64,000 bases of DNA, taken from IMG/VR virus record IMGVR_UViG_3300034062_004592, positions 1 to 64,000 of that record. One strand, written 5' to 3'. A program made the position numbers and the translations under genes. Of the stretch, positions 7,098 to 32,403 are shown one piece after another. Position 1 is the first letter of the stretch, and every line of letters starts with the position of its first letter. This stretch comes from a virus. Its lineage: Duplodnaviria; Caudoviricetes. Below the pieces are notes generated by a model. It had not been told where the DNA came from, ran no database searches, and saw nothing but the letters and a program-made list of their open reading frames with translations.

Positions 7098-8627
7098 TCA
7101 GTAATCGAGGTGTAACTGTCCCTTCCTTGCTAATCCGGTAACAAGCCAGACGAGAGCGTCGACACAATCGTCGTGACTACTTACGCCAAAGTTGGTAAGC
7201 TCTTCAAACATGTTGGTGAAATTACGAAAACGATTGAAGATGATCTTGCGGTCCTCAAACATACCCATAATGCCACGGAAGCGAGCCAACTTATCTGCCC
7301 TGAAACCTTTAACGGGATGCCAAATTAAATTGTAAAGACCTTCATTGTTCAGACAAACACGTTTGAAGTCCGCCTCCAGGGATGCCTGGTACTGTACGGC
7401 CTCACTCCAAATGTCGCACGTTGAATAGCTGGGGTAATACAAACCGCTTTGTTCGTCTTTGGCAATCACTGACCAATCATTCAACAACTCCTTGAGGGCA
7501 TCAAGTTTTTCAAGGTTACCCATGACGCGAATACGTCGGTAATCAATGATGTGAATGCGGTCGCCAATGCGACCACCAAGAATCATAACTGTGTAATCGT
7601 TTTTCTCTTTAGTGCCAGCGGAGAGATCAACCCCAACCCCAAGGGCGTCAAACTCCGTTGCAATTTCCGCTTTCACAATCAACTCCGGAGCCAACGAAAG
7701 TTCGTTCTGCCGAACGATTTGATTCATGTACTGGAACGAGAAAGCAATTGGTGCTTGCCGTTTTTTCTCCTTTAGGTAATCCAATGACCACATGTCTGGC
7801 CAATACGATTCCTCTTCACCAGTGATGGGATTGTTTTGAATTGCTGAAAGGATAATCTGTTGCCAGTTGTTTTGTTCATTAAATGTTGTGGAGTGAATGT
7901 CATCGTGTCTGAAGCGAGTACCAAGGCAGATCGCTCGTGCACCTTCAAACATGGTTGGTGCAATCACAGCATTCCAGTTGTCCTGCATCTGTTTCCTGAT
8001 GTCAGGGTTGGCAATATCTGCGGCCGACTTGATGGCGTCATCAATCATGACCAAGTGCGAACGCTTGGAAGTCACCGAACCCTTGAGGCCTGCTGCGCAA
8101 AGCGTGAACTGTTCGTCACCTGTTACATCAATGCCAGCAAACTTGTGATCAATTGACCAGTACTCATTGCTGGTGGCGTTCTTCAAAAGGCGAACTTTAG
8201 GGAAAACCTCTTGGTATCGCTTGCTTTCAATGATGCGTTTGATGGTGGAAGATTTGGAACGAGCGATGTCAACGGTGTAAGACAGATACAGAATCTGCAG
8301 TGGCAATCCTGCGTGCGTATGGATGCCAATGGCCCATGCCGTAAGCAGACCCAATACTGTGGACTTAGCGGAGCCCCTGGGTGCCAGGAGATCCACGTTG
8401 GGACCAGCGATCTTAATGAGGCAACTGCTGTCCTCCTCTGTGACAAAGTGTCGATGCCAGTTGAGGTGATGAGCAGCCGGTGGTTTATCTGCTACGTATT
8501 CACAGAAGAAGCCAAAATCTTCTTGGGCTTTCTTCAGTGCTTCTGCGTTACGTGGCTTGCGTATTTGCTGTCTGCGTGCGGCGGCTTGAGCATTGCGGCG
8601 GTAAGCAAGATGCGTATAGCTTGGCAC
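7098..8627 (-). CDS. terL: terminase large subunit
   Basis: Walker A APRGSAKS, Walker B VMIDD, coupling GTRF, RNase H-like nuclease motifs GVDLS..DYT and HDDCVDA. Confidence 0.9.
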   Translation of the reverse strand: MPSYTHLAYRRNAQAAARRQQIRKPRNAEALKKAQEDFGFFCEYVADKPPAAHHLNWHRHFVTEEDSSCLIKIAGPNVDLLAPRGSAKSTVLGLLTAWAIGIHTHAGLPLQILYLSYTVDIARSKSSTIKRIIESKRYQEVFPKVRLLKNATSNEYWSIDHKFAGIDVTGDEQFTLCAAGLKGSVTSKRSHLVMIDDAIKSAADIANPDIRKQMQDNWNAVIAPTMFEGARAICLGTRFRHDDIHSTTFNEQNNWQQIILSAIQNNPITGEEESYWPDMWSLDYLKEKKRQAPIAFSFQYMNQIVRQNELSLAPELIVKAEIATEFDALGVGVDLSAGTKEKNDYTVMILGGRIGDRIHIIDYRRIRVMGNLEKLDALKELLNDWSVIAKDEQSGLYYPSYSTCDIWSEAVQYQASLEADFKRVCLNNEGLYNLIWHPVKGFRADKLARFRGIMGMFEDRKIIFNRFRNFTNMFEELTNFGVSSHDDCVDALVWLVTGLARKGQLHLDY

Positions 8628-20156: not shown

Positions 20157-20465
20157 ATGCCAGTCACTATTGATCACAAAGAACTTCAAGATGCACTGGA
20201 AGAGTTTAATATTCGTCCGGCAGATTACTATCTGTCGTTTGACACCAATGTTCTTTACCTCGTTTGGTGTACAAACGGCGCTAATGCCGTTCGTCTCGTA
20301 CACAACAACGGGTGTATAGACATTGAAATCAAAGGCGTATGGCATGAGGAAATTCCTGAAGGTTACATCCTTCCTTCATACGCATGCGTACGTTACATCC
20401 TTGCCGGTGCCGTACTTGGCATCGACATCACCTCACCTAACACCACTACACAACAACTGACATGA
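20157..20465 (+). CDS. hypothetical protein
   Basis: ATG at 20157 after the CTCAACC leader; C-terminus duplicated in the next gene. Confidence 0.55.
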   Translation: MPVTIDHKELQDALEEFNIRPADYYLSFDTNVLYLVWCTNGANAVRLVHNNGCIDIEIKGVWHEEIPEGYILPSYACVRYILAGAVLGIDITSPNTTTQQLT

Positions 20466-20631
20466 AACAAATCATTCCCCTCGGCAAAGGCCGATTTGTC
20501 CACGTTGATTCTTACGGTGCGTCTCATGAGACACGCCGTGGATCAATTATTGTGGCAGCCTTTGCTATGCTCATCTCAGCACTCACTGTCGGTGCCGTAC
20601 TTGGCATCGACATCACCTCACCCAACACCAC
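20405..20631 (+). repeat. 42-bp direct repeat (20405-20446 and 20590-20631, one mismatch)
   Basis: CGGTGCCGTACTTGGCATCGACATCACCTCACC(T/C)AACACCAC. Confidence 0.9.
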
Positions 20632-20947: not shown

Positions 20948-21397
20948 ATGGAAGCACTCAGCCAACTGGACGTTCAAGCCCCTGATCACGTCAGTGTGAT
21001 TACAAGGGAAGGCAAGGTCACCATCTCCGTCGTCAAAGACGGAACATCAGTGACCCTTGGGTTCCCCATCAAAACTACAGGGCTTGATACAACCCCCAGA
21101 CCCCCGCTTCAGCCACCAGCACCAAAAGTAATGGCTGTTAAGACCCAGCATTCCACTGCAGTGCAGCTGGAAACATCTTATCTTTCTTTGAAAGGTAAGC
21201 ACTCTCCCGTTGGCAACTGTAAGTTGACACCACAGCAGGTACGTCAAATCAAACTGATACTGACCGATGAACGGTTCATGAAAGCATTTGGTTCTAGGCA
21301 ACAAGCTTACGAAGCAATTGCTGCTAAGTTCAACGTCAGTTACCACACAATCTCCAACATCCACAAGGGACTTGCTTGGAGGAACGTAAGTATCTAA
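20948..21397 (+). CDS. HTH DNA-binding protein
   Basis: C-terminal KLTPQQVRQIK...IAAKFNVSYHTISNIHKGLAW, an HTH of the type found on HNH endonucleases. Confidence 0.65.
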   Translation: MEALSQLDVQAPDHVSVITREGKVTISVVKDGTSVTLGFPIKTTGLDTTPRPPLQPPAPKVMAVKTQHSTAVQLETSYLSLKGKHSPVGNCKLTPQQVRQIKLILTDERFMKAFGSRQQAYEAIAAKFNVSYHTISNIHKGLAWRNVSI

Positions 21398-21426
21398 CAC
21401 CGCAGTAGTATATTTGTACTACGAAT

Positions 21427-21454
21427 GGACCTGAGTAAGTCCTTAAACTGCTCA
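21427..21454 (+). ncRNA. H-type pseudoknot leader motif
   Basis: GGAC-CTGAGTAA-GTCC-TTAAAC-TGCTCA. Confidence 0.65.
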
Positions 21455-21476
21455 ACACACCACTGCAACTCACACG

Positions 21477-21674
21477 ATGAAAGACCCTGACTTCATTGAT
21501 GAACAACGCAATGCCGATGCCCTTGACGCAATGGCTGATCGTATATACGAATTGGAAGAAGCCATGCGTGAAGCAGAGCAAGATGGTTGGACAGGCGTTT
21601 TCAATGATGAGATATCAAATGAAGAACGCTACGCATGTGACCATTACAACGAGAGGTATGTAATCAATGACTGA
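21477..21674 (+). CDS. acidic hypothetical protein
   Basis: 65-aa ORF after the pseudoknot. Confidence 0.6.
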   Translation: MKDPDFIDEQRNADALDAMADRIYELEEAMREAEQDGWTGVFNDEISNEERYACDHYNERYVIND

Positions 21675-21965
21675 ACCGCTCTCCCCCGCCGCGCAGGCGG
21701 TGCTGGATGCGTATAAGAACGCTCCAGATTTGATGCTTGACGGTGATCCTGACGAAGTGGAACGGCGCCTTGGCCTTGCCGCCGCCCTGCGGGTTGCTGC
21801 TGATCAGGTAGCACCCGATGGCTATGCCTCATTTACTGGCGACATCGATTGGGACCAAGGAATGGAAGCAAGAAGTGACTCAATCCGTGAGGCAATCCTC
21901 GCCATCGCCGCCGAGCTGGAGGTACGCATGTGACCATTACAACGAGAGGTATGTAATCAATGACT
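21630..21965 (+). repeat. 43-bp perfect direct repeat (21630-21672 and 21923-21965) flanking a cassette gene
   Basis: TACGCATGTGACCATTACAACGAGAGGTATGTAATCAATGACT. Confidence 0.95.
21667..21933 (+). CDS. LSPAAQAVLDA-family cassette protein A1
   Basis: Constant blocks LSPAAQAVLDA / AAALRVAADQV / LAIAAELE. Confidence 0.7.
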   Translation: MTEPLSPAAQAVLDAYKNAPDLMLDGDPDEVERRLGLAAALRVAADQVAPDGYASFTGDIDWDQGMEARSDSIREAILAIAAELEVRM

Positions 21966-22439
21966 ACCACTAAACAAATCTGGGATGAAGACCCAGTGCT
22001 ACTGGCTATTGTCCTGGTATCAATCACAGTCACACTCATTGGAGACTTCATTAAATGCCTACTGCAAATTCATTTGCCAAGACAGAAACAGCTCGTCGTT
22101 GGATCAGTCATTACAACTGGTCAACAGAGTTTGAAGACAAGGAACCAACCACGATCACGCTCCACGAATGCAGCCTGCATTACGGTGGACCAGAAGAAGG
22201 CGGATGGTATTACGAATCAGGCTGGCCCATCAAAACAGTCTGTGTCTTCTCCAAGAAGCAAGCCATCCGCGAAGCAATCGCACTCGAAGAGTACGCACTC
22301 GAAACGTACGGCGACAAGAAGGACTACCTCGGATGGCCTCAATGGCGCGTTAGTTTCTCAGACGAGTACGCCAAAGCGTACCCCAAAGAACGTCCGTACT
22401 ATTGCTGATGTCAAATCAACTGGACCTGCCAAAGCTTGA
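21960..22439 (+). CDS. TM-anchored hypothetical protein overlapping 22055..22408
   Basis: ATG within the repeat; N-terminal TM VLLAIVLVSITVTLIG; the rest is in an overlapping frame. Confidence 0.4.
   Translation: MTTTKQIWDEDPVLLAIVLVSITVTLIGDFIKCLLQIHLPRQKQLVVGSVITTGQQSLKTRNQPRSRSTNAACITVDQKKADGITNQAGPSKQSVSSPRSKPSAKQSHSKSTHSKRTATRRTTSDGLNGALVSQTSTPKRTPKNVRTIADVKSTGPAKA
22055..22408 (+). CDS. hypothetical phage protein
   Basis: YGGPEEGGWYY and YPKERPYYC motifs common in small phage proteins. Confidence 0.7.
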   Translation: MPTANSFAKTETARRWISHYNWSTEFEDKEPTTITLHECSLHYGGPEEGGWYYESGWPIKTVCVFSKKQAIREAIALEEYALETYGDKKDYLGWPQWRVSFSDEYAKAYPKERPYYC

Positions 22440-22662
22440 TCCCAAGATTAGGCTGACAATCAACCAACGCAACATCTGGTTTTACTTTCTGAATCACAGG
22501 AAGAAGTACAAGAACTTACCTTGTTATGTACCAAAGCTTCCGATGCAAGAGACCAGGCGTCAAGACTATTACACAGCCTTGGAAAGGTTGGAGCAATACG
22601 GATTGATACGCGTGGACAGAACCAGTCGTAACTACACGGGCTGGATCATGCTTGATCCCTAA
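22402..22662 (+). CDS. winged-HTH-like protein
   Basis: LTINQRNIW...TALERLEQYGLIRV. Confidence 0.55.
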   Translation: MLMSNQLDLPKLDPKIRLTINQRNIWFYFLNHRKKYKNLPCYVPKLPMQETRRQDYYTALERLEQYGLIRVDRTSRNYTGWIMLDP

Positions 22663-22852
22663 GCGCATAACACTAGCGTTATATAAGCTGTCCTTATATC
22701 CCATTCGCTATTTGCGAATAGCGAACAAAGGGTATTGCCAGATAACTACTGGCCTACCCCCCAAACCCCCCGCTGTTCAGTACCAGGGGGGGATCCTTAG
22801 ATATACATACGGTATATCCACTTACTCCCACCATCCATTCATCAACTCAACC

Positions 22853-23152
22853 ATGGAACAATCACAGAGGTATCCAAAGATTGACTGGACCAAGAACGAA
22901 TACTTTCATGTGCAACACGCATTGGAAATCCTCCAACATGTTGTTGATCGTGAATCAAAACGTCACGAGATGAATCAACACCTCACACCCAGCATGCTCA
23001 GCATGTTGGAAGATGAGATCATCCCAATGCTCAGTAACGAACTTGGCTGTGACGATGGGCCAAGCGATTACGAAATCTTTGGTGAACCACCGATGACGGC
23101 AAACGAAATGTACACTGCTGCATGGCGTCAGCACCAAGAGCTTCACTCCTAA
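22853..23152 (+). CDS. hypothetical protein
   Basis: ATG at 22853 after CAACTCAACC; the ORF-track extension to 22652 crosses a palindrome-rich spacer. Confidence 0.6.
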   Translation: MEQSQRYPKIDWTKNEYFHVQHALEILQHVVDRESKRHEMNQHLTPSMLSMLEDEIIPMLSNELGCDDGPSDYEIFGEPPMTANEMYTAAWRQHQELHS

Positions 23153-23174
23153 CCAAACATTAAGAGAATCTGTA

Positions 23175-23207
23175 AGTCTGCCTTGGACTAGCCGTCCAGG
23201 GTAGACT
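23175..23207 (+). promoter_or_regulatory. 14-bp intergenic hairpin (processing site?)
   Basis: AGTCTGCCTTGGAC-TAGCC-GTCCAGGGTAGACT with G-U pairs. Confidence 0.5.
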
Positions 23208-23243
23208 GATCCTGCTTAACTCATTCCGCAAAACACACATCAG

Positions 23244-23447
23244 ATGTCCGACAAACCACGCATTCCCGACGCACTTGACATGCAACGTCTGCATGCCATG
23301 CAGCTTGTTGCCAAAATGAAAGAGTCCGCTGATAAGCATGGCGTTCAATTCATCGGGGGTTTTGTCACCCCCGATGGAGAGAAATTTGTAATGACCAATA
23401 TGGATGAAGATGATCAACGTATGCTCATGCCTGAGGAACTCAAGTGA
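23244..23447 (+). CDS. hypothetical protein
   Basis: 67-aa ORF, coupled to the next gene. Confidence 0.6.
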   Translation: MSDKPRIPDALDMQRLHAMQLVAKMKESADKHGVQFIGGFVTPDGEKFVMTNMDEDDQRMLMPEELK

Positions 23448-23644
23448 CTAAAGACAAATCACCAATCAACTTCGACAAGACAATTGCTGGCTTTAACATA
23501 ACTGAGCACGGCGTTAAGTCTTATACCAAGTCAATTAAACTTGGTCCGTTCCAGGTTACACTTAACGCTCGTGGCTCTGGTGTCAGAGGATCTATCAGTA
23601 TCCCTGGCACAGGCATAAGCAAACGAGGTATCAAACTGTTCTAA
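23444..23644 (+). CDS. DUF4236-like small basic protein
   Basis: KSIKLGPFQVTLN..G...SISIPGTGIS. Confidence 0.6.
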   Translation: MTKDKSPINFDKTIAGFNITEHGVKSYTKSIKLGPFQVTLNARGSGVRGSISIPGTGISKRGIKLF

Positions 23645-23647
23645 TAG

Positions 23648-23681
23648 CTGGGCATCACCACTACGGTGTGTAAGTCCCAGC
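23648..23681 (+). promoter_or_regulatory. intergenic hairpin with internal loop
   Basis: GCTGGG..CACC-ACTAC-GGTG..CCCAGC. Confidence 0.45.
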
Positions 23682-23704
23682 ATTCACCCAGCTTTCAACT
23701 CAAC

Positions 23705-23878
23705 ATGGATTCACTCACACTATTTGATCGCATCAATCTTGCAAAGTGTGCACAGTTGCGGGCAGAAGCTCGCCTTTGTGACAACGACGGATTCCTTGCG
23801 GAGTATACCACTGCACGCATGTGGACTAAGTACCGGTGTTACATCACCAAAACACATTCATTCGTGGAGCCTGACTGA
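23705..23878 (+). CDS. hypothetical protein
   Basis: ATG after CAACTCAAC (MDSLTLFDRINLAKC...). Confidence 0.55.
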   Translation: MDSLTLFDRINLAKCAQLRAEARLCDNDGFLAEYTTARMWTKYRCYITKTHSFVEPD

Positions 23879-24126
23879 TGTCTGTTCTTGCAATCGAATC
23901 AACTATCATCGATGATGACTATGTCACAGTTGAAGCAATTGTTGATGACATGCGTTGCATTTATGCAGCGACTTACTCAAACCCTGCTGAGTATGCTCCG
24001 GCACTTTGCCGAGCTAGTTTCTTCTTGGGTGATGACACCATCCCTACTGATGAAGATGGCTTCTGCCGTTATCTTGACGCATGCCAGCTTGAGTGGGAAC
24101 CCATTGATCTAGGTAACGACGAATGA
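23878..24126 (+). CDS. acidic hypothetical protein
   Basis: 82 aa; PAEYAPALCRASF. Confidence 0.6.
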   Translation: MSVLAIESTIIDDDYVTVEAIVDDMRCIYAATYSNPAEYAPALCRASFFLGDDTIPTDEDGFCRYLDACQLEWEPIDLGNDE

Positions 24127-24300
24127 TTGGATTCTCCATCGAATTTAAACGCTGGTATATTACAGTGCGTGGTCCCATGGGCAGGGTATATCTCTGCGCT
24201 GGGTTTGCCAAACGCCTGCCAGTGTTTGTGTCACCGCAACAATCAATTGCATTTGATGACGACATCAATAATGATGAAGGCCATAGTGTGAAGTAACACT

Positions 24301-24329
24301 ACGTCCTGAGCATGACGTTAAACTGCTCA
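24301..24329 (+). ncRNA. H-type pseudoknot leader motif
   Basis: ACGTC-CTGAGCAT-GACGT-TAAAC-TGCTCA. Confidence 0.7.
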
Positions 24330-24357
24330 TCACTACGAACTCAACCCTGAACTTACC

Positions 24358-26094
24358 ATGGAATTTCGTCTTCCGACCAATCTTCAGAACGAACTTATCC
24401 CTTACGATCCAACGCTCAAGAAGTTGGCACGTACTGAAAAGCAAACCAACACAACTACTAAGAAATCTAAATACCCACTTGGCAATCCACCACAGTTGAT
24501 GCCATTGGATATTGTAAGAGAATCACTACAGCAAGAAGCAATTGATGTTATCAATGCATCAGCTGCTCCTGATAGGCACCACGAATTCAAGTTGCCTGTC
24601 GGTAACATTCCCAATGTAGAGTACGTTGTCCATGCAGTAATGTACCACTACGAAGGCGTATGGGTAGCAGCATGGCTGCCACCTAAAGGCAAGGAGAATG
24701 ACTATGTATACGGCTACACTTACTGCTTCAAGGACACAGCCGCCACTCGTAAGATGCTGGATTACCAGGTTAAAAATCACCTGGAACAATACACCATATC
24801 AGAAATTGGTCGCTCTACTTATTACCACAAGACTGAATTGGTTACCAAGCAAGACATCATTGATGGTAATGATAAAGCCCACTGGATGTATAACACCAAC
24901 AGCTGGAGCGCAAAGGGTAGAAACATTTCAGCAATGTTAGGACTCTTTAGGGATGCACTTAAGAAAACAATTCCAACCTGGTCAGACGGTCGTGGAATAT
25001 TTGATCGCATCAAAACTTCTCGTAACCTATACAACTTGCTTAGTGAAGATCGTGACTTAGATCGTAACTACTGGATCAAATACGAAAAAGATTTTGAGCA
25101 AACTAAAAAACAATGGTCTGCATCAGTTGCATCTTTGTTCCACATAATTGATTACCATGCAAATGTCCCTCACTATAATCCGTTTGCTCCATTTGTGCGC
25201 GTTCGTCACATCCTTGATAAACCATTCTTCCGCAAGTGGATCCAAGATAAATGTAATGAGATCAATACAAAGTACCAAGATGAATCAGTAGACACTATGG
25301 CTACAATCCGCAGGCCTTGGTTGTTAATCAAAGAGTTTGTTAAAGGTATTGCTTATGTCCATTCAATCTGGGGTGATGCAGTTCCACTGGATTACTACCA
25401 ATCAAACATCGATAACTTGATGGGCATTGAAGTCTGGGGCACTGTACCAACAATTGTTGTTCCGTGGCTAACTGAACATATGCCAGTTGCTTCATTCTTC
25501 CAAATGCGTAGTAAATACTACTTGGAACAGAAGGCTGCTCCACAACGTAGTTATGACTATGAAGAAAAACTTGGTATGTCTAAGTACCGATTCCGTGAAT
25601 GGGAAGATACATGCAGCATGCTTAATCAAATCCTCAGTAACGACAAAACAATTGATCCACCTAAGCGTTGGCGCATCACTGAATTCCATGACCATGTGCA
25701 AGCAGAAGCATGGAAAATTCAGAATCCCAATCACAAACTTCCACAAGATCTATTCCCTGCACCAATCAAGGTGCAGCACGCTGATCAGAACTGGTCATTC
25801 TTCCAGCCATTTGACACCCATCAACTGGCACAGTGGGGCCAGGCCGTACGTAACTGCGTAGGTAACGCCAGCAGTTATGCCGAAGGTGTACGCAAGAAAC
25901 AACACTTCATTGTGTTGTGTATGGTCGATGGTGCACCACGCTTTACCATCCAACTTGAAGTCAACATGGGACTCATGAGTGTCAAACAGATTGTTGGGAT
26001 GCACAACTCCAGGCTGACGGAGGCAGATCGTGATCTGTATTCGGCAGCTTTCCGTCAGGCCTTGCAATCCCGCGAGGAACAGCTTAAGATCTGA
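24358..26094 (+). CDS. PcfJ-domain protein
   Basis: C-terminal EFHD...QLAQWGQAVRNCVG..Y...FTIQL..QIVGMHN. Confidence 0.65.
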   Translation: MEFRLPTNLQNELIPYDPTLKKLARTEKQTNTTTKKSKYPLGNPPQLMPLDIVRESLQQEAIDVINASAAPDRHHEFKLPVGNIPNVEYVVHAVMYHYEGVWVAAWLPPKGKENDYVYGYTYCFKDTAATRKMLDYQVKNHLEQYTISEIGRSTYYHKTELVTKQDIIDGNDKAHWMYNTNSWSAKGRNISAMLGLFRDALKKTIPTWSDGRGIFDRIKTSRNLYNLLSEDRDLDRNYWIKYEKDFEQTKKQWSASVASLFHIIDYHANVPHYNPFAPFVRVRHILDKPFFRKWIQDKCNEINTKYQDESVDTMATIRRPWLLIKEFVKGIAYVHSIWGDAVPLDYYQSNIDNLMGIEVWGTVPTIVVPWLTEHMPVASFFQMRSKYYLEQKAAPQRSYDYEEKLGMSKYRFREWEDTCSMLNQILSNDKTIDPPKRWRITEFHDHVQAEAWKIQNPNHKLPQDLFPAPIKVQHADQNWSFFQPFDTHQLAQWGQAVRNCVGNASSYAEGVRKKQHFIVLCMVDGAPRFTIQLEVNMGLMSVKQIVGMHNSRLTEADRDLYSAAFRQALQSREEQLKI

Positions 26095-26149
26095 TTGCTG
26101 AAGCCACAGCAGGGCCATCGTATTCTCGTTATAGGTGGCCCTTTCTCTA

Positions 26150-26377
26150 ATGCCTGATTACACTGACGATCAACTACTTGCCATGGCAATGGCAAATCTT
26201 GGTGAGTACATCCATGACAACTCACCACATTACATTCTGATTGAAGAAGATCCTCGCAATGAGGATGACTACGATACGTGGAGTTATGGCTGTGAGCCAT
26301 TGCCACATGATCACACTTGGCAACACACATCAATTGATGTGAGTGTAAGCCCAAGTGATGGGGACATGGCGGAATAG
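26150..26377 (+). CDS. acidic hypothetical protein
   Basis: MPDYTDDQLLAMAM...; the 3' end runs into the tRNA. Confidence 0.5.
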   Translation: MPDYTDDQLLAMAMANLGEYIHDNSPHYILIEEDPRNEDDYDTWSYGCEPLPHDHTWQHTSIDVSVSPSDGDMAE

Positions 26378-26445
26378 GTAGACGCAACGGACTTAAAATC
26401 CGTAGGCCATTGGCTGTGAGAGTTCAAGCCTCTCTGTCCCTACCA
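26360..26445 (+). tRNA. trnL: tRNA-Leu (UAA)
   Basis: GGGGACA/TGTCCCT acceptor, D arm TGGCGGAATAGGTAGACGC, anticodon arm ACGGA-CTTAAAA-TCCGT, long variable arm, T arm GAGAG-TTCAAGC-CTCTC, encoded ACCA. Confidence 0.95.
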
Positions 26446-26467
26446 ACCCATACAACAGCTCAACACC

Positions 26468-26830
26468 ATGTCAATCTTTGCTTGCTTTAAGTACATCATC
26501 CCTGAGTTCCATGCATTCAGTGATGACGACAATCGTTACAACCTTGGTGCAACATGGACTGCACAAGATGGACTCAAGGATTATCACAACCTTGAACTAA
26601 GGTATGTCCATAACTCAGAGCGGCTTGCGCTCCAGGGGGATCCACAGCCTGATGGCTCATGGCGTTACGTGGAAGCCAACGGTTCCGTTCATACCATCTC
26701 ACCTGAACGTGCCAAGCATTTCATGGAGCAGACTCATCAGCATGCCACGATCATGTGTGCCATGCTCGACAAGCTTAAAGAGTCAGGGGTTATGAACGAA
26801 CCACTGGACACCCAAGCCAGCCCAGCTTAA
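26468..26830 (+). CDS. hypothetical protein
   Basis: 120-aa ORF with CTCAACACC leader. Confidence 0.6.
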   Translation: MSIFACFKYIIPEFHAFSDDDNRYNLGATWTAQDGLKDYHNLELRYVHNSERLALQGDPQPDGSWRYVEANGSVHTISPERAKHFMEQTHQHATIMCAMLDKLKESGVMNEPLDTQASPA

Positions 26831-26880
26831 ACTCAGTACCTACTCACTACCCTCCGTTACTAACAGCGGAGGGTTTACTC

Positions 26881-27225
26881 ATGGACACACAACCTTCAAA
26901 TGATTACATTGACCTTGATCTTGTTGACAAGGTGCTTGCATTAGTACCAGAGCAGGCATGGTCTTTAGTATTGACCGCTATTGTTAGCGGCATTGTTGAT
27001 GAGATGCCATCGACTGTGCTCCAGGAATTGACTGGAGATGTGGAGGGGTTTGATCGTGCTGAAGAAATCTTGACTTCGTATTACAATGGCACAGATCAAC
27101 GCAATGCTTTAATCCAAGATGCATTCAAACTTATTGGTACAGAAAATACATTGCATCTTTTGGATGCAATGCAATTAAACAAGTATGTTGAATCTCTTGA
27201 ACTTAACACTGAAACCAATGACTGA
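26881..27225 (+). CDS. acidic hypothetical protein
   Basis: 114 aa; preceded by hairpin ACCCTCCG/CGGAGGGT. Confidence 0.6.
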   Translation: MDTQPSNDYIDLDLVDKVLALVPEQAWSLVLTAIVSGIVDEMPSTVLQELTGDVEGFDRAEEILTSYYNGTDQRNALIQDAFKLIGTENTLHLLDAMQLNKYVESLELNTETND

Positions 27226-27412
27226 ACTATCACCACAAGCGCAGGCGGTGTTGGATGCTGCCGACTCCGCATTTGACCAAGCTGGAACAACTCGCCAAGG
27301 CATTGCCGCCGCCCTTCGCAGGGCTGCTGGTTATTTGTTTCCAAACGACACAGCTAAACAGTGCTACGACCGTCTCCTCGCAATCGCCACCGAACTGGAT
27401 GACCAGCAATGA
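27218..27412 (+). CDS. LSPAAQAVLDA-family cassette protein A2
   Basis: MTELSPQAQAVLDA / IAAALRRAA / LLAIATELD. Confidence 0.7.
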   Translation: MTELSPQAQAVLDAADSAFDQAGTTRQGIAAALRRAAGYLFPNDTAKQCYDRLLAIATELDDQQ

Positions 27413-27666
27413 CTGAACTATCGCCACAAGCGCAGGCAGTACTAGATGCCTATCGCAGCATTTGGCTAGATGAACCATTGGAGTGTGACGTGGAGTGCCT
27501 CGCCGCCGCCCTGCTGGCTGCTGCGGATCAGGTGGTGCCTGATGAATCTCATCCTGGAGAATCTCAATTTTGGGATGATGAAGCAGAGCAGGAATGGCAA
27601 AACAATCGTCATGTTCGCCTCCAATTCCTCGCCATCGCCGCCGAGCTGGAGGGTGGCAATGACTGA
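27409..27666 (+). CDS. LSPAAQAVLDA-family cassette protein A3
   Basis: MTELSPQAQAVLDA / LAAALLAAADQVVP / FLAIAAELEG. Confidence 0.7.
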   Translation: MTELSPQAQAVLDAYRSIWLDEPLECDVECLAAALLAAADQVVPDESHPGESQFWDDEAEQEWQNNRHVRLQFLAIAAELEGGND

Positions 27667-28024
27667 CTTTCGTGCGCTGTGCGCTGAGCTGCTAGCTGAC
27701 TATGACAACTGCCACTACCGTTCCGAGTTGAGTGACCGCGCCCGCGCCGCCCTGGCTCAGCCCGAGCCGCAGGGGCCTAAGTTGGTTTATCGCTACAGCC
27801 CGGTCACTATTGCCGAGTGCGGTGGCCCGTGCGAGCAAGGCCCTCAATACTGCGACTGCGGCGAAATAAAGGGCGAACCTGCGCCCGTCCCGGTGGCGCC
27901 TACGGATGAGGAGCTGTGGGACCTGTACCAACACCTGGGAAGTTACTTTTCTCCTACGGAGTTTGCTCGTACAGTTCTCGCCCGCTGGGGCACACCCACC
28001 AATACTATTAACCAGGAGGACTAA
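27659..28024 (+). CDS. MTDFRALCAEL-family cassette protein
   Basis: MTDFRALCAELL..RARAALAQPEPQGP..PTDEEL..FARTVLARWG with a Cys-rich insert (CGGPCEQGPQYCDCG). Confidence 0.65.
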   Translation: MTDFRALCAELLADYDNCHYRSELSDRARAALAQPEPQGPKLVYRYSPVTIAECGGPCEQGPQYCDCGEIKGEPAPVPVAPTDEELWDLYQHLGSYFSPTEFARTVLARWGTPTNTINQED

Positions 28025-28314
28025 TGGCCATGGAAATCCAAACACTTCGCGGCAACTTTTCTCAATTCAGCAAAGGTTTGTCAATTCGCGTATCAGACGG
28101 AAATGCAACGCTTGATACTTACATTGACCGCAAGGAATTGCGAGCTTTTGCTGCCATGCTTGTTGACATTGCCGATGACGCACTTTCCAAGATTGGAGAA
28201 GAAGCTCAAGATTGCCAATCGAAACTACGCGACTGTCTTGAGGATCTGCAAAGCGGCGATTGGAAAGCTCCCCTTGTCGAGCCGGTGCCTGTAGTGGAAG
28301 GTGCCGATGACTGA
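28024..28314 (+). CDS. hypothetical protein
   Basis: 96 aa; GGAGGA SD. Confidence 0.6.
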   Translation: MAMEIQTLRGNFSQFSKGLSIRVSDGNATLDTYIDRKELRAFAAMLVDIADDALSKIGEEAQDCQSKLRDCLEDLQSGDWKAPLVEPVPVVEGADD

Positions 28315-28420
28315 CGCCCTGCTCGCCCTCGCCCTGCTGCTCGCCCTCGGCGCAGCGTTTGAACTAAGTGTGAAAGTAATTTTTGTTAAGTTACTACCGC
28401 TGTTGCTTAGGTTGCATTAA
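28307..28420 (+). CDS. 37-aa hydrophobic membrane peptide
   Basis: MTDALLALALLLALGAAFELSVKVIFVKLLPLLLRLH; ATGA and TAATG couplings. Confidence 0.5.
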   Translation: MTDALLALALLLALGAAFELSVKVIFVKLLPLLLRLH

Positions 28421-28767
28421 TGAAATGTCGTCAATGTAATAGCAAGAACACACGTGTTACTTGCACTGATCACTTTGATACATTCACCAAGCGTTACTGC
28501 AGATGCCTCGATTGCAATTCAAAGTTTCGAACTGTTGAATACTATGAAGAACGGAAGCCTGGCCCCCCGCCTGGCACACCAAGAACACGTAACATAACGC
28601 GTGGTGAGTCCCATGGTTCTGTAGTATTTCAAGAGAAGGACATCCGCATGATGCGCACTCTCTACCAACAAGGCACAACCTTGGTATCCATCGCAACTAA
28701 ATACGGGACAAGTTCTTCTTACGTGTCACGCATTGTCAACTACAAATCATGGAGCCACATTAAATGA
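28420..28767 (+). CDS. NrdR-like Zn ribbon plus HTH transcription regulator
   Basis: MKCRQCNSKNTRV..RYCRCLDCNSKFRTVE, then IATKYGTSSSYVSRIVNYKSW. Confidence 0.65.
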   Translation: MKCRQCNSKNTRVTCTDHFDTFTKRYCRCLDCNSKFRTVEYYEERKPGPPPGTPRTRNITRGESHGSVVFQEKDIRMMRTLYQQGTTLVSIATKYGTSSSYVSRIVNYKSWSHIK

Positions 28768-29060
28768 CCAGTGCCAAGTATGACTTCAACATTGGTGATC
28801 GCGTAGCCGAGCGTCCCAAGTCACATGGGTTGTTTGCTGTAAGTAAAGAAGCTGAGGAGATTGTTAAACGCAATAGGTCTCAAAGGTATGGCACTATTGT
28901 TGGCTATGATACACAGCTAAACAAAAGTGGTAAGCGCATGAACATGTTGCTTGTGCAATGGGATCACCTCAAGTCCCCAATGAAACATGCAAGGTGTAGG
29001 ATCTGTCCCATTGATCAGCTTGCTACATTGACAAAACAAATCATTGTCCCAGGGGAATGA
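28764..29060 (+). CDS. SH3-like hypothetical protein
   Basis: FNIGDRV...YGTIVG...LLVQWD. Confidence 0.55.
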   Translation: MTSAKYDFNIGDRVAERPKSHGLFAVSKEAEEIVKRNRSQRYGTIVGYDTQLNKSGKRMNMLLVQWDHLKSPMKHARCRICPIDQLATLTKQIIVPGE

Positions 29061-29713
29061 CCATGAACGCATCACTTGTTTGGGTCACGCCTCAAGCCGA
29101 AAAGTTGATCACACGCATGGCTCGGGTGTCAGCTCCAAAGAACCAAGACAATATGGATACAGCTCCTAAATTATTGCGGTACTTATTAAAACATAAACAC
29201 TACTCTCCGTACGAAATGGCTAACATGTGTGTTGAAATCAACACAACACGTGCAATATCTGCACAGATTATTCGCCATCGTTCGTTTAGCTTTCAAGAAT
29301 TCAGTCAGCGCTACGCAGATATCAATGAGCTTGGCTCAGCTGTTATCCCACACCTGCGCCGTCAAGACCACAGCAACAGACAAAACAGTATCGACGACTT
29401 GACATCAGAAGATGTTGCCAACTTCTATCGGCGCATCAGTCAACTCTTTGAGGATACTGAGCATCTCTATCGTGAGATGGTAAGTCATGGCATTGCCAAA
29501 GAGTGCGCCAGGAACATCTTGCCGATGGGTACGCAGACTAAGATCTACATGAACGGTTCGCTCCGTTCGTGGATACATTACCTGCAGCTAAGAACTTCCA
29601 ATGGAACCCAAGTAGAACATAAACAAATCGCAGAAGAAATCAAACAAATCTTCTGTGCACAATTCCCAGTCATTGGAGAAGCTGTGTTCTCAGGAGATCC
29701 AGGGATTGCCTGA
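29057..29713 (+). CDS. thyX: FAD-dependent thymidylate synthase
   Basis: H.SPYE, RHRSFSFQEFSQRY (RHRx7S) signature, ECARNILP, GSLRSWIHY. Confidence 0.95.
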   Translation: MTMNASLVWVTPQAEKLITRMARVSAPKNQDNMDTAPKLLRYLLKHKHYSPYEMANMCVEINTTRAISAQIIRHRSFSFQEFSQRYADINELGSAVIPHLRRQDHSNRQNSIDDLTSEDVANFYRRISQLFEDTEHLYREMVSHGIAKECARNILPMGTQTKIYMNGSLRSWIHYLQLRTSNGTQVEHKQIAEEIKQIFCAQFPVIGEAVFSGDPGIA

Positions 29714-29738
29714 GGATTCTTTTAGTCAGCCCGTTGAA

Positions 29739-29858
29739 TCAGACAACAACTTCAGCAGGTTGTTTTTTTAATTCCTTAATGGCACGCTTGGACTCTACAT
29801 CCTTGCGTGTTTGTTTTTTCTTTTGGTTTGCCAGGTACACAAGCAGTGCTTGATCCAT
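29739..29858 (-). CDS. 39-aa basic peptide
   Basis: MDQALLVYLANQKKKQTRKDVESKRAIKELKKQPAEVVV fills the gap; TAAACT upstream. Confidence 0.45.
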   Translation of the reverse strand: MDQALLVYLANQKKKQTRKDVESKRAIKELKKQPAEVVV

Positions 29859-29928
29859 TATTCTGTATCTGTTGTTACTGAAGTTTACTCCAATTGACGT
29901 ACACCATGTCGTTCACTGTGTAACACAA

Positions 29929-30165
29929 ATGACACCAAACGAATACCAACGCAACGCACGTTTTAATTATTTGGCAAAGCATGATCACTTTGCTAAACCA
30001 GATGACTTTATTGAAGTAACCGAATGGTACAACGGTGAAGGCTTTGATGTACAACTCAGCACCAACGCTGGTGAACAACGTATGTCATTTAGCTGGGGTG
30101 AATACCAAGCATTGAAAGCAACCCTTGGTGACTGGGCTGAAAACAATCTGGAGAATGAAGAATGA
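29929..30165 (+). CDS. hypothetical phage protein
   Basis: DFIEVTEWYNGEGFDV motif; ATG at 29929. Confidence 0.6.
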   Translation: MTPNEYQRNARFNYLAKHDHFAKPDDFIEVTEWYNGEGFDVQLSTNAGEQRMSFSWGEYQALKATLGDWAENNLENEE

Positions 30166-30485
30166 CTAATCAACACCCTATCACCCTACCGCCGGAGTTG
30201 GTAGAGCAGTGGTATTCTAATTCACCACTAGACCGAGGCTTAACTGTTGCCACCCAAGCCGCACAATGGGGAGCCGACCAAGAACTGGAGGCGTGTTGTG
30301 AGTGGCTTAATGGCGGATCAAAAATTGATTACGACACTGCTGCGTTACTCCGCGCCGCCCGCCGCCCCAAGCCGCCGAGCTTGAAGGAGCAGGCGCTTGG
30401 CATCCTCGATGTGGCTCACCACGATGTTTTAGAAGATGATCAAATAGCAACTATCCGCCGCGCACTGGAGTCGATCAATGATTGA
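30162..30485 (+). CDS. GADQELEAC-family cassette protein B1
   Basis: PITLPPELVEQW / AAQWGADQELEACCEWL / LRAARRPKPPSLKEQAL / IRRALE. Confidence 0.7.
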   Translation: MTNQHPITLPPELVEQWYSNSPLDRGLTVATQAAQWGADQELEACCEWLNGGSKIDYDTAALLRAARRPKPPSLKEQALGILDVAHHDVLEDDQIATIRRALESIND

Positions 30486-30639
30486 CATCAACAGCTATGG
30501 CGGACAAATCGGGCGCATTATGTGGCAGAACACTTGGAACGAGCTATGGGGATACACTGGTTTCTGGGACAAGAATCCAGGAAAGAAAGGTCGATTTATT
30601 CTTTGGTGTATTCGACCGCGCACTGGAGGCGCTACCTGA
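30478..30639 (+). CDS. Trp-rich small protein (53 aa)
   Basis: MIDINSYGGQIGRIMWQNTWNELWGYTGFWDK...; ends inside the 30-bp junction repeat. Confidence 0.5.
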   Translation: MIDINSYGGQIGRIMWQNTWNELWGYTGFWDKNPGKKGRFILWCIRPRTGGAT

Positions 30640-31007
30640 ATGACTAAACAAATCAACGGTGACAAGTTGTTTGTCATTGATCCACACCCTGCTATTCCAC
30701 CTGCTGATCAACTAAAGAAGTGGGAAGACAAATGGTTTGACGAAGAAGAACATGCTGATGTTCTGTTGATCCAAGCGTTTCAAGCAGGCGCCGACCAGGA
30801 GCTGGAGGCGTGCGTCGGATGGCTTGACCGAAATGGTTACTTCGATTCTGCGCATGAACTCCGCGCCGCCCGCCGCCCCAAACCGTCGAGCTTGAAAAAG
30901 CAAGCGTTAGTTGATCTTTATGATATCTACACCAGCCAGCCCTTCCCTGTGGGAGATAATCGCTTTAACTGTATCCGCCGCGCACTGGAGGCGCTACCTG
31001 AATGACT
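30616..31007 (+). repeat. 30-bp perfect direct repeat (30616-30645 and 30978-31007)
   Basis: CCGCGCACTGGAGGCGCTACCTGAATGACT. Confidence 0.9.
30640..31005 (+). CDS. GADQELEAC-family cassette protein B2
   Basis: AFQAGADQELEACVGWL / LRAARRPKPSSLKKQAL / IRRALEALPE. Confidence 0.7.
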   Translation: MTKQINGDKLFVIDPHPAIPPADQLKKWEDKWFDEEEHADVLLIQAFQAGADQELEACVGWLDRNGYFDSAHELRAARRPKPSSLKKQALVDLYDIYTSQPFPVGDNRFNCIRRALEALPE

Positions 31008-31247
31008 GACTTATCACCACAAGTGCAGGCGGTGTACGACTCAATGCGCGCCGCCACCACAATCGTTCCAACCCGCGTTGAATCTGGTGTTCCGGTCGCC
31101 TATCGACTGGCCCGGTATCGCACCACCGAAGGTGCTGTTCACCTCAAGCTCCAGGGCGCCTACCGATGGAAACAAGGGGCCAGCAGCGGGATTGAGTGGA
31201 GAGACATTGAAACCGTCGATCTTGACCAGGAGGCCGACAATGGCTGA
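31002..31247 (+). CDS. chimeric cassette protein (family A N-terminus on an unrelated body)
   Basis: MTDLSPQVQAVYD followed by a different sequence. Confidence 0.6.
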   Translation: MTDLSPQVQAVYDSMRAATTIVPTRVESGVPVAYRLARYRTTEGAVHLKLQGAYRWKQGASSGIEWRDIETVDLDQEADNG

Positions 31248-31488
31248 ACCTCTCTCCCCCGCCGCTCAGGCGGTGTTGGATGCCGCTAATGCTTCCGCAA
31301 CTAATGCGTGGTCTGATGCCACTCACCAACGCTTTAGGTCTGGTGTAGCCGCAGCCCTGCAAGCTGCTGCGAATCAGGCGGTGCCAGATGACGGTGTGGC
31401 GTCATCTATTGAACGCATTGTTGAAAAGCGCATCCAAACCAAACTTCTCGCCATTGCCGCCGAGCTGGAGGGTGTGACCTCACGGTGA
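31240..31488 (+). CDS. LSPAAQAVLDA-family cassette protein A4
   Basis: MAEPLSPAAQAVLDA / VAAALQAAANQAVP / LLAIAAELEG; AGGAGG SD. Confidence 0.7.
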   Translation: MAEPLSPAAQAVLDAANASATNAWSDATHQRFRSGVAAALQAAANQAVPDDGVASSIERIVEKRIQTKLLAIAAELEGVTSR

Positions 31489-31552
31489 TCAAGCCGCAAG
31501 GTCATTCGCTTGCTAGCCAGGGGAAGCAGCAGAAACCCTGACTCCCTCGGGG

Positions 31553-31582
31553 TTGACGCTGCTCTGCTACACCCCAGATAAT
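31553..31582 (+). promoter_or_regulatory. sigma70-type promoter
   Basis: TTGACG-18 nt-GATAAT; predicted +1 at about 31588, the first base of a pseudoknot. Confidence 0.55.
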
Positions 31583-31587
31583 CATAC

Positions 31588-31616
31588 ACGTCCTAAGCAT
31601 GACGTTAAACTGTTGG
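31588..31616 (+). ncRNA. H-type pseudoknot leader motif
   Basis: ACGTC-CTAAGCAT-GACGT-TAAAC-TGTTGG. Confidence 0.6.
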
Positions 31617-31635
31617 TCAACTCAACTCAACTACC

Positions 31636-32403
31636 ATGAAACTTCTTAAGTTTTCTACCGGCAACGGCAAGCTCAAGAATCGTTTGATCTTCTCGCTCCC
31701 AGCGGGATACGCCTGCCCTCACGCAGGTGTGTGTAAGACCATGGCCGATCGTGCCACTGGTTCTATCATTGATCTGCCACAACACAACGGCACAACAGCA
31801 GATGAGTTCCGCTGCTTTGCTGCCATGGCAGAAGTTAGGCCAAACGTACGGGAGGCACGCTGGCACAACTGGGATCTGTTGCGTGGTGTTATGTATGGCA
31901 ATGGAAACCAAGCGTTGTTGTTGCGTGATCTAATTGACATGTCGCTCAGCATGCAACCACCAAAAGAACTGGTGCGTGTCCACGAGTCAGGAGATTTCTG
32001 GACTGAGAACTATCTCAAGGCATGGCTGATGGTTGCCAAGCAACGCCCCAAGCAAAAGTTCTATGCCTATACCAAGTCTCTTGGGATGTGGTACAACCTT
32101 AAAGATCTGATACCATCCAACTTTTATCTTACCGCATCTTACGGTGGTACGTTGGATTACATGCTGCCCAAGTATCCAGACGTTTATACACGCATTGCGT
32201 ATGTGGTGTACACGGAAGAAGAAGCAGCAGAGCGTGGACTTGAGATCGACCATGACGATAGCCACTGCCTTGGTGATAAGCCATTCGCACTCTTGGTTCA
32301 TGGGTCCCAGAGGGCTGGTACTCCTGCATCCCAAGCGTTGTCTCAACGCAAGAAGGATGGGAAGTTTGTCGGGTACGGTAAATCAATGCAGAAGATATCC
32401 TGA
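31636..32403 (+). CDS. GP88-family (radical-SAM-like Fe-S) protein
   Basis: FSLPAGYACPHAGVC...CFA, VRVHESGDF, FYAYTK. Confidence 0.7.
   Translation: MKLLKFSTGNGKLKNRLIFSLPAGYACPHAGVCKTMADRATGSIIDLPQHNGTTADEFRCFAAMAEVRPNVREARWHNWDLLRGVMYGNGNQALLLRDLIDMSLSMQPPKELVRVHESGDFWTENYLKAWLMVAKQRPKQKFYAYTKSLGMWYNLKDLIPSNFYLTASYGGTLDYMLPKYPDVYTRIAYVVYTEEEAAERGLEIDHDDSHCLGDKPFALLVHGSQRAGTPASQALSQRKKDGKFVGYGKSMQKIS

Follow-up and report, generated by a model that had tools for sequence, protein, structure and literature searches.

In the pilin and VlsE systems, a single expression locus is altered by segmental gene conversion from silent cassettes, a process that takes place within one genome and at high frequency. 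For T4-type phages, modular shuffling mediated by PeSLs (promoter-early stem-loops) has reportedly been described by Comeau and colleagues in 2014. Here we analyze a family of small genes, designated family A, in a stretch of phage DNA of 64,000 nucleotides (Caudoviricetes; IMG/VR record IMGVR_UViG_3300034062_004592; hereafter the window), which represents the first 64 kb of a phage record of 85,462 bp that is rated complete by CheckV. Each full family-A gene carries three conserved blocks enclosing two variable segments, V1 and V2, and our data suggest that these segments travel between phages as cassettes, with the DNA of the blocks serving as recombination handles. Like pilin and VlsE, family A would exchange variable mini-cassettes through conserved flanking blocks within the gene; it differs in that all of its copies are expressed-type genes and that exchange is seen between genomes.

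Four published systems are close in design. The gp38 adhesins of T2/T6-type phages consist of glycine-rich motifs (GRMs) that form the structural core and alternate with interchangeable hypervariable segments (HVSs), an arrangement discussed as favoring modular exchange (Trojet et al., 2011, PMC3157838). Family A likewise combines conserved motifs and variable segments in one protein, but the likeness is one of design only: gp38 is an adhesin of the virion and has four HVSs, whereas the family-A proteins of about 65-95 amino acids are predicted to be all-helical, are encoded in early operons and possess two cassettes. They are unrelated to gp38 in sequence (Pfam and PHROGs gave no match), do not map at a tail-fiber locus, are present in multiple copies per genome, and their whole genes are mobile as well. 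In the PeSL system, small accessory genes are inserted, deleted or replaced between copies of a repeated border sequence; recombination between the repeats was proposed as the driver, and excised mini-circles were shown (Arbiol et al., 2010, PMC2839356). Family-A genes also come and go among relatives at repeated borders (A1 at AATGACT, the A2/A3 site and the arrays in front of the GP88 gene; see below). However, the described PeSL borders comprise an intergenic promoter and a stem-loop, whereas those of family A are overlapping stop/start sequences of 8-9 nt (AATGACTGA) without any intergenic DNA, and the main handles of family A lie within coding sequence, so that pieces of proteins would be shuffled besides whole genes.

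The internal protein (Ip) hotspot of T-even phages encodes diverse small accessory proteins that have an N-terminal segment in common, and counter-defense has been shown for some of them (PMC12373910). Family A resembles them as a set of small accessory proteins with a common N-terminal segment; as far as the Ip proteins are described in that source, they share the leader only and are packaged into the capsid, whereas the family-A proteins have three blocks and a fold in common and are encoded in early and nucleotide-metabolism operons. Segmentally variable genes, finally, in which variable regions are interspersed with conserved ones (Zheng, Roberts and Kasif, 2004, PMC387263), are a descriptive class across bacterial genomes and not a phage family, and free assortment of cassettes is not shown in the parts of that study on which we rely. 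Modular shuffling at conserved linkers is hence already known; here, it takes place below the level of the gene and on a very large scale. What sets family A apart from gp38, PeSLs and Ip is that the handles are positioned inside a tiny gene, that two cassettes assort freely, and that the genes are multi-copy and occur across phage lineages.

Family-A genes and their constant blocks

The window contains four full family-A genes (A1 to A4) and one chimeric gene (A5; Table 1). In the full genes, a junction whose ATGACTGA start overlaps the upstream stop codon is followed by block 1, V1, block 2, V2, block 3 and a further junction. The four proteins have 25 invariant columns in common, all of them positioned in the three blocks (MTE(P)LSPxAQAVLDA, AAALxxAA..P and LAIAxEL). 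A profile built from A1-A4 recovers exactly five places in the entire 85,462-bp genome, namely A1 to A5, with E values of 6.6e-36 to 2.4e-29 for the full copies and of 8.5e-5 for A5, whose alignment is confined to profile positions 1-21. At the DNA level, the blocks are repeats as well: block 1 (43-46 nt) is 60-91% identical among its copies, block 2 (48 nt) 65-83% and block 3 (33 nt) 70-91%, while the segments between them are of unequal length and cannot be aligned. These data bear out an initial annotation, made from the DNA letters alone, of four paralogs with three blocks whose conservation extends from protein to DNA, of block separators dissimilar in sequence and length, and of a fifth gene carrying block 1 alone on a foreign body.

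The same annotation had described the genes as GC-richer than the backbone and as chained by stop/start overlaps. The GC content of the family-A genes (0.55-0.59) does exceed that of the window (0.47) overall, but the excess resides in the blocks (0.58-0.79) and not in the variable segments (0.46-0.56). Likewise, the overlaps are real but are not of a single type, since those between A2 and A3 and between A5 and its upstream neighbor B2 comprise 4 nt (ATGA) and those at the remaining junctions 8 nt. The junction AATGACTGA is found in its exact form on the plus strand at 21666, 27217, 27408, 27658 and 31001, and as the variant AATGGCTGA at 31239. When one mismatch is allowed, the motif occurs 32 times in the window as compared with 18.6 ± 4.1 expected occurrences, a count that none of 100 shuffles reached.

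Near-random assortment of V1 and V2 across the family

We used the blocks as anchors in family members and clustered their V1 and V2 segments with an identity cut-off of 50%. The starting set comprised 392 sequences; 40 of them failed to anchor and were dropped, as were 29 duplicates among the remaining 352, which left 323 unique members. These 323 members contain 115 V1 types and 140 V2 types that are joined in 302 combinations, as compared with 310.9 ± 3.0 for random pairing, and they form 91 four-gamete quartets; the common V1 types each have 9-19 V2 partner types. An earlier, smaller set had given 164 combinations versus 170.6 ± 2.7 for random pairing. Judged from these counts, V1 and V2 assort nearly, but not fully, at random. 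Mosaic combinations of the variable segments, as foreseen in the initial annotation, are hence present, and the segments do not follow a simple tree. Where loci elsewhere have a V1 cassette in common, its DNA identity is 91-98%, as compared with just 67-94% for the neighboring block 1. The same cassette type was found twice in one locus in none of 22 pairs, an observation that is uninformative because only about 0.3 such pairs were expected.

Such a mosaic could be an artefact if short-read assemblers joined different family members at the blocks. Logan contigs from lake water indeed break at the blocks, the depth of lake-run reads at the blocks rises up to 144 as compared with 11-14 in the unique flanks, and many lake-run contigs agree with the window in a block but not beyond it. 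The diverging contigs indicate that many family members co-occur, and they are also the reason why assemblies of these loci need care. Nevertheless, we regard an assembly artefact as a very improbable source of the mosaic. A 472-nt contig from lake run X4, which stems from another study and another year, spans A2 and A3 (27217-27667) without a single difference; identical family-A proteins are found on 3 to 21 contigs; the finished genome of the phage isolate S-SRM01 pairs a V1 resembling that of A2 with a V2 resembling that of A1; and one V2 at one and the same locus is combined with different V1 segments in two assemblies.

Single-cassette exchange upstream of GP88

Exchange of individual cassettes can be followed upstream of the conserved GP88 gene. 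Through this gene we gathered 80 relatives and inspected the preceding 2.6 kb, of which some loci contain only a part. The gene arrays at this site vary among relatives; a full A gene is present in 27 of the 81 loci and partial copies are present in eight. The window (GP88 identity 100%) carries the array B-B-D-A with the V1/V2 pair ANASATNA/DDGVASSI. Its relative L104 (GP88 identity 98.8%) has the array B-A with ANASATNA/EEESCEGG, L106 (97.3%) has B-B-B-A with AADVYWDW/EEESCEGG, and L105 (97.3%) has B-A with WSDNTLYT/EETWLGTE. At the DNA level, the window and L104 agree in V1 (57 of 59 positions identical) and not in V2 (19 of 78), whereas L104 and L106 agree in V2 (73 of 78) and not in V1 (23 of 59). 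The 150 nt from the stop codon of the A gene to the start of GP88 are 94-97% identical in every pair. Since it is only the cassette that differs next to so similar a flank, we conclude that these exchanges started and ended within the blocks.

Gain, loss and fusion of whole genes

Whole family-A genes turn over as well. A1 is enclosed by a perfect direct repeat (Table 1), and all four related contigs that were found via a piece of this repeat contain one copy of it and lack A1, so that the upstream gene abuts the downstream gene. The perfect repeat and the four empty sites identify A1 as a 293-bp insertion that is composed of a 250-bp gene body and a 43-bp target duplication. Its left end lies exactly at AATGACT and its right end just past block 3; the final three codons of the A1 tail (VRM*) are supplied by the duplicated target. 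In other family members, the repetition at the two gene ends is limited to the 8-11-nt junction. One of the relatives with an empty A1 site also departs from the window at A2/A3: next to an upstream gene with 98% identity, it has just one A gene in place of A2 and A3, and both this A gene and the neighbor that follows it are different.

Family-A DNA is also joined to other coding sequences. For the body of A5 we found 24 homologues, and among the 16 that were aligned, two, namely the window copy and P0124, have the block-1 N-terminus. Among 112 longer proteins containing a family-A domain, 17 are open frames in which a family-B protein (phrog_32006) precedes the A domain. In three of these 17 frames, the junction RRPKPPSWR(V/T)(A/P)M represents block-3 DNA that is read out of frame, and the site of the B/A join, GCCGCCGAGCT, is common to family B and block 3 in different frames. 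These out-of-frame joins indicate that recombination operates on the DNA and not on the protein. One protein contains three consecutive A domains. Two proteins from other metagenomes (P0371 and P0382) carry an entire RNA polymerase alpha-CTD (PF03118; E values of 3e-12 and 5e-13) in the V2 slot, which, from these two cases, appears to tolerate a whole domain. In a third (P0384), also from other metagenomes, block 1 is interrupted in frame by an HNH_3 endonuclease domain (E 1.9e-10).

Selection on blocks and cassettes

Among cassettes of the same type, the ratio of nonsynonymous to synonymous differences (pN/pS) is 0.17 in 26 pairs of V1 and 0.28 in 14 pairs of V2, so that the cassettes encode a peptide under purifying selection. 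In the blocks, the differences at four-fold degenerate sites amount to 0.50, 0.44 and 0.28 for blocks 1, 2 and 3, respectively, and the alanine codons are position-specific, with GCC, GCG or GCT being dominant at different alanines (chi-square 695, 30 degrees of freedom). Because the alanine codons differ so strongly by position, the synonymous sites of the blocks are not saturated; saturation at these sites would, according to the initial annotation, have spoken against its reading.

The selection on the cassettes bears on the possibility that family A consists of selfish mobile mini-genes, whose junction and blocks aid their spread by recombination, possibly with the help of homing endonucleases that cleave the blocks, without any anti-host benefit. 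Such an origin would be in keeping with the recent insertion of A1 that is absent from all four relatives, with the widely varying arrays, with the HNH_3 domain within block 1 of one protein cluster, and with an HNH-like gene about 750 bp downstream of A3. It is at odds, however, with the purifying selection on same-type cassettes and with a three-helix fold that is kept in members of 64 and 85 amino acids alike (see below). Moreover, the common HNH gene of related loci lies at a median distance of 3 kb from family A, with one of its 24 copies within 500 bp, and an endonuclease is found inside a block in just one of the 112 longer forms. We therefore consider purely selfish genes unlikely.

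A large unannotated viral family

Family A is a very large unannotated viral family in phages of freshwater and estuarine picocyanobacteria. When 8,000 candidates from a protein database clustered at 90% identity were scored, at least 7,295 matched at E <= 0.01, all of them named "hypothetical". Among cluster representatives at 50% identity, 2,125 matched at E <= 1e-3 and 786 at 1e-10. Profile-based mining, which the initial annotation had suggested for freshwater viromes, thus recovered a large viral family. The nearest Atlas clusters are 96-100% viral. In the host family (Cyanobium-type), 5 of 301 genomes match family A, either on small contigs of metagenome-assembled genomes or adjoining an integrase, and 2 of 600 stretches from an alanine-rich pattern scan of genome contigs were confirmed as family A. 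The profile search yielded three matches, annotated as "hypothetical protein", in S-SRM01, a myovirus with a finished genome of 240 kb. The presence of family A in both this myovirus and the window phage shows that the family spans phage lineages with a common host group.

Searches of Pfam, PHROGs, NCBIfam and PADLOC yielded no family-A match (PHROG rows at E 0.02-0.09 are at chance level), the profile detected nothing below E 0.026 among the PDB sequences, and tblastn against isolated phages gave nothing at E <= 1e-3 for A3 and one weak piece for A1. Family A hence does not correspond to a known single-function domain in Pfam, PHROGs, NCBIfam, PADLOC or the PDB sequences. Our literature search, which did not extend to supplements, found no paper describing family A.

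Predicted fold and charge

AlphaFold2 models computed with family alignments are of high confidence for A3 (mean predicted local distance difference test, pLDDT, 85.5; predicted template modeling score, pTM, 0.76; helices 6-16, 25-42 and 57-81) and for A2 (pLDDT 90.0; helices 6-20, 25-37 and 46-62). The family-A protein is therefore confidently modeled as a small three-helix scaffold, as the initial annotation had surmised. Its view of V1 and V2 as two loops needs modification: modeled helix 1 corresponds to block 1, but helices 2 and 3 begin in V1 and V2 and finish in blocks 2 and 3, so that the variable segments are part loop and part helix. Foldseek searches of BFVD returned only uncharacterized family-A members from the Synechococcus phages S-CBWM1 and S-SRM01. 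A wide VIA structure search returned many unrelated generic helical hairpins at Z <= 7.0, with Z values under about 13 being common for helical bundles. The proteins are acidic, with a median isoelectric point (pI) of 4.46 and a pI below 5 in 176 of 211 members.

Small size and acidity would also befit virion-packaged, injected proteins akin to the T-even internal proteins, with block 1 acting as a packaging leader. The presence of block 1 on an unrelated body (A5 and P0124) points in the same direction, as does the comparison with the T-even Ip, which are encoded in a hotspot of diversity and have nothing but an N-terminal leader in common (PMC12373910). The family-A genes, however, are all located on the plus strand within the early and nucleotide-metabolism region of the genome, where thyX, dCTP-deaminase, MazG-like, replication and small early genes are their neighbors, and they do not adjoin head genes. 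A leader does not explain why conservation in the middle and C-terminal blocks equals that of block 1, and block 1 is found in just two of the 16 aligned members of the A5 family. Packaging of family A into virions is accordingly quite unlikely.

Probable block-mediated recombination and possible function of the proteins

Collectively, the near-random assortment, the single-cassette swaps, the presence or absence of A1 and the cross-family chimeras strongly support the notion, already put forward in the initial annotation, that the constant blocks act as recombination handles, and we hold a mechanism based on block crossovers and cassette exchange to be highly probable. The GC-rich blocks, whose DNA is conserved throughout the family, would provide crossover sites for homologous recombination, both between co-infecting phages and between paralogs; crossovers at these sites would allow V1 and V2 to move as independent cassettes, and whole genes would be gained, lost or replaced at the junctions.

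The initial annotation had proposed a phage diversification system and had recognized neither a reverse transcriptase nor an integrase. The latter observation now extends to the complete 85,462-bp genome, in which we found no match to RVT_1 (PF00078) or to Phage_integrase (PF00589), while control genomes were positive for RVT_1 and 14 of 14 control genomes were positive for Phage_integrase. Serine recombinases were absent from the PHROG matches of the 57 open reading frames (ORFs) scanned in the window, although no search aimed at these enzymes was made. One alternative is a programmed diversifier acting within this genome, such as a diversity-generating retroelement (DGR), a shufflon or gene conversion from silent cassettes. 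The partial copies (A5, a family-B remnant at 30616-30645 and those in eight of the 81 GP88 loci) can be read as silent cassettes. However, the four full copies are all intact genes in operons, and whole segments of unequal length are replaced, which differs from adenine-directed substitution against a template repeat. Together with the missing RVT_1 and Phage_integrase matches, this makes a programmed system extremely unlikely, and the evidence points instead to exchange between phages in the population. In the absence of a reverse transcriptase and of a tyrosine integrase, we view the diversity of family A as the population-level product of general homologous recombination.

The DGR was considered as a candidate in its own right and rejected: RVT_1 is lacking, the variable segments cannot be aligned and are of unequal length, and the long repeats comprise only the blocks and the 43-nt and 30-nt duplications. 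Whole-segment replacement and the absence of RVT_1 and Phage_integrase thus rule out a DGR, and nothing points to a system of the integron or shufflon type, with the search for recombinases having been aimed at tyrosine integrases.

With regard to function, the constant helices would form the scaffold, and the cassettes may carry putative specificity for molecules that vary among hosts or competitors and are met early in infection, for instance in host take-over or counter-defense; a phage would then gain from possessing several different cassette combinations. A binder or counter-defense function of this kind, for which the initial annotation had named host defense or regulatory proteins as possible targets, is a tentative suggestion. 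The purifying selection on the cassettes and the insertion of whole domains into V2 fit a display scaffold. As the overall explanation, we favor with moderate confidence a block-shuffled scaffold family whose cassettes possess putative interaction specificity. A more far-reaching version of this explanation, which we put forward as speculative and rather doubtful, pictures a population-level combinatorial display library, in which a fixed three-helix scaffold would present two exchangeable specificity cassettes matched to variable host defense or transcription proteins, the block DNA would be shaped both as recombination sites and as homing-endonuclease targets (the latter being suggested by the HNH domain inside block 1), and the cassette pool would be common to phage families.

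Several observations weigh against block-mediated exchange and against the functional proposal. The number of V1/V2 combinations lies about 2.9 standard deviations under the shuffled mean, so that assortment is not fully random. Because redundancy at 90% or 50% identity had been removed from the protein sets, distinct combinations make up an inflated share; furthermore, the data stem mostly from short-read metagenome assemblies, with Logan contigs breaking at the blocks. A long flanking duplication is present in one of the 82 family members examined, namely A1, and its mode of insertion is hence not general. The reduced synonymous divergence in the blocks that the initial annotation had anticipated was not seen; pS is 0.36-0.55 in the blocks and thus no lower than in single cassette types (0.37-0.41), giving no sign of a special constraint on the block DNA beyond shared ancestry and exchange. 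Both pN and pS are crude p-distances, and the pN/pS of 0.90 for block 2 is unusable, as it results from a sliding regular-expression register. The initial annotation had attributed the shuffling to phage exonuclease, SSB and annealing genes, of which exonuclease and SSB were recognized in the window and an annealing protein was not. Contigs from RNA libraries match only the constant blocks (90-95% identity), and DNA may occur in such libraries. Finally, Foldseek found no match to family A in the PDB at E <= 1e-3; the best hits, EsxA (E 0.95) and PE25 (E 1.7), which represent helical hairpins of the WXG100 and PE kind, lie above this threshold, and the search offers no informative structural relative.

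Genomic context and neighboring small-gene families

The window stretch is contained in public runs from lake-water metagenomes. Among the 57 ORFs scanned, PHROG matches were obtained for a major head protein, a piece of the terminase, tail proteins and endolysins, and furthermore for a T7-like DNA polymerase, a primase, SSB, an exonuclease, ThyX and several HNH genes. The only tRNA gene of the phage lies among early genes, and it was the sole match when positions 21000-32000 were compared with phages by megablast (Table 1).

Family B often precedes family A; in many cases in other phages, a family-A start follows directly on its end (..RALEALPE*). It contains internal repeats of its own; B2 is bounded by a perfect 30-nt direct repeat, the first copy of which represents a remnant C-terminal piece of family B. 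The MTDFRALCAELL gene that follows A3 belongs to a family without a Pfam or PHROG match, which is elsewhere the commonest close downstream neighbor of family A (21 copies at 18 loci, median distance 108 bp).

Further observations concern other parts of the window. The match to the terminase large subunit covers positions 409-707 of the 760 profile positions, and thereby the nuclease half only; the ATPase half was not found among nearby ORFs of at least 100 amino acids, and the upstream DNA contains small ORFs only. The terminase large-subunit gene may hence be split or interrupted. A ferritin/Dps-like gene and a gene for a protein with a PcfJ-like C-terminal domain are also present, and a 45-nt direct repeat is found upstream of the family-A region. 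A 32-nt intergenic motif (core GTCCTnAGCATGACGTTAAACTGCTCA) is positioned upstream of three operon-first genes. It can form two mutually exclusive helices (ACGUC/GACGU and UGAGCA/UGCUCA) that would suit an H-type pseudoknot, and in the first copy the stem is altered on both sides (GGAC/GUCC). Nested folding alone is not significant (z -1.0 to -1.4).

Table 1. Positions of family-A genes, their blocks and other features of the window.
Feature	Position	Strand	Remarks
A1, full gene, 88 aa	21667-21933	+	V1 YKNAPDLMLDGDPDEVERRLG, V2 PDGYASFTGDIDWDQGMEARSDSIREAI; profile E 2.0e-33
A2, full gene, 64 aa (shortest)	27218-27412	+	V1 ADSAFDQAGTTRQG, V2 GYLFPNDTAKQCYDR; profile E 2.4e-29
A3, full gene, 85 aa	27409-27666	+	V1 YRSIWLDEPLECDVEC, V2 DESHPGESQFWDDEAEQEWQNNRHVRLQ; profile E 1.8e-33
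A4, full gene, 82 aa, last gene of operon	31240-31488	+	V1 ANASATNAWSDATHQRFRSG, V2 DDGVASSIERIVEKRIQTK; profile E 6.6e-36
A5, chimera, 81 aa	31002-31247	+	family-A start and block 1, then foreign body ARVESG..AYRLARYRT..EWRDIETVDLDQE
Junction and block 1 (MTELSPxAQAVLDA)	27216-27258; also 21665-21710, 27407-27449, 31000-31042 (A5), 31238-31283	+	DNA repeat
Block 2 (AAALxAAADQVVP)	27497-27544; also 21773-21820, 27300-27347, 31343-31390	+	DNA repeat
Block 3 (LAIAAELEG) running into AATGACTGA	27623-27666	+	DNA repeat
Other block-3 copies	21893-21925, 27372-27404, 31442-31474	+	DNA repeat
A1 left repeat copy	21630-21672	+	perfect 43-nt direct repeat; 3' end of upstream gene plus AATGACT
A1 right repeat copy	21923-21965	+	100% identity, spacing 293; target duplication
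B1, phrog_32006 family	30162-30485	+	E 2.6e-26
B2, phrog_32006 family	30640-31005	+	E 1.6e-24
Direct repeat bounding B2	30616-30645, 30978-31007		30 nt, perfect
MTDFRALCAELL family gene	27659-28024	+	8-nt overlap with A3
GP88 gene	31636-32403
tRNA-Leu (anticodon TAA)	26360-26445		87% identity over 68 nt to tRNA-Leu of Synechococcus phages B3 and B23
Terminase large-subunit match	7098-8048	-	nuclease half
Direct repeat upstream of family-A region	20402-20446, 20587-20631		45 nt, 96% identity, 185 nt apart
Intergenic motif, core GTCCTnAGCATGACGTTAAACTGCTCA	21426-21457, 24301-24332, 31588-31619		32 nt
Gene for PcfJ-like protein	24358-26094		578 aa; PF14284, E 8e-6
Ferritin/Dps-like gene	46427-46981		PF00210, E 8e-11

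Implications

Modular evolution of the Botstein type, with its conserved linkers, has usually been argued from whole genes. In family A, the linkers are positioned inside a 250-bp gene, and exchange can be traced down to single cassettes of about 50-80 bp in phages whose remaining sequence is 94-97% identical. As a consequence, intragenic module exchange in wild phages becomes directly measurable. The family also marks a blank in current databases, since over 2,000 clusters (50% identity), originating from abundant lake cyanophages, are absent from Pfam, PHROGs and NCBIfam. Should the cassettes indeed determine binding specificity, the small and well-folding scaffold with its two tolerant insertion sites would be of interest to protein engineers. 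Picocyanobacteria drive much of the primary production in freshwater, and family A would then represent a natural scaffold library and offer a new handle on counter-defense and host take-over in these organisms.

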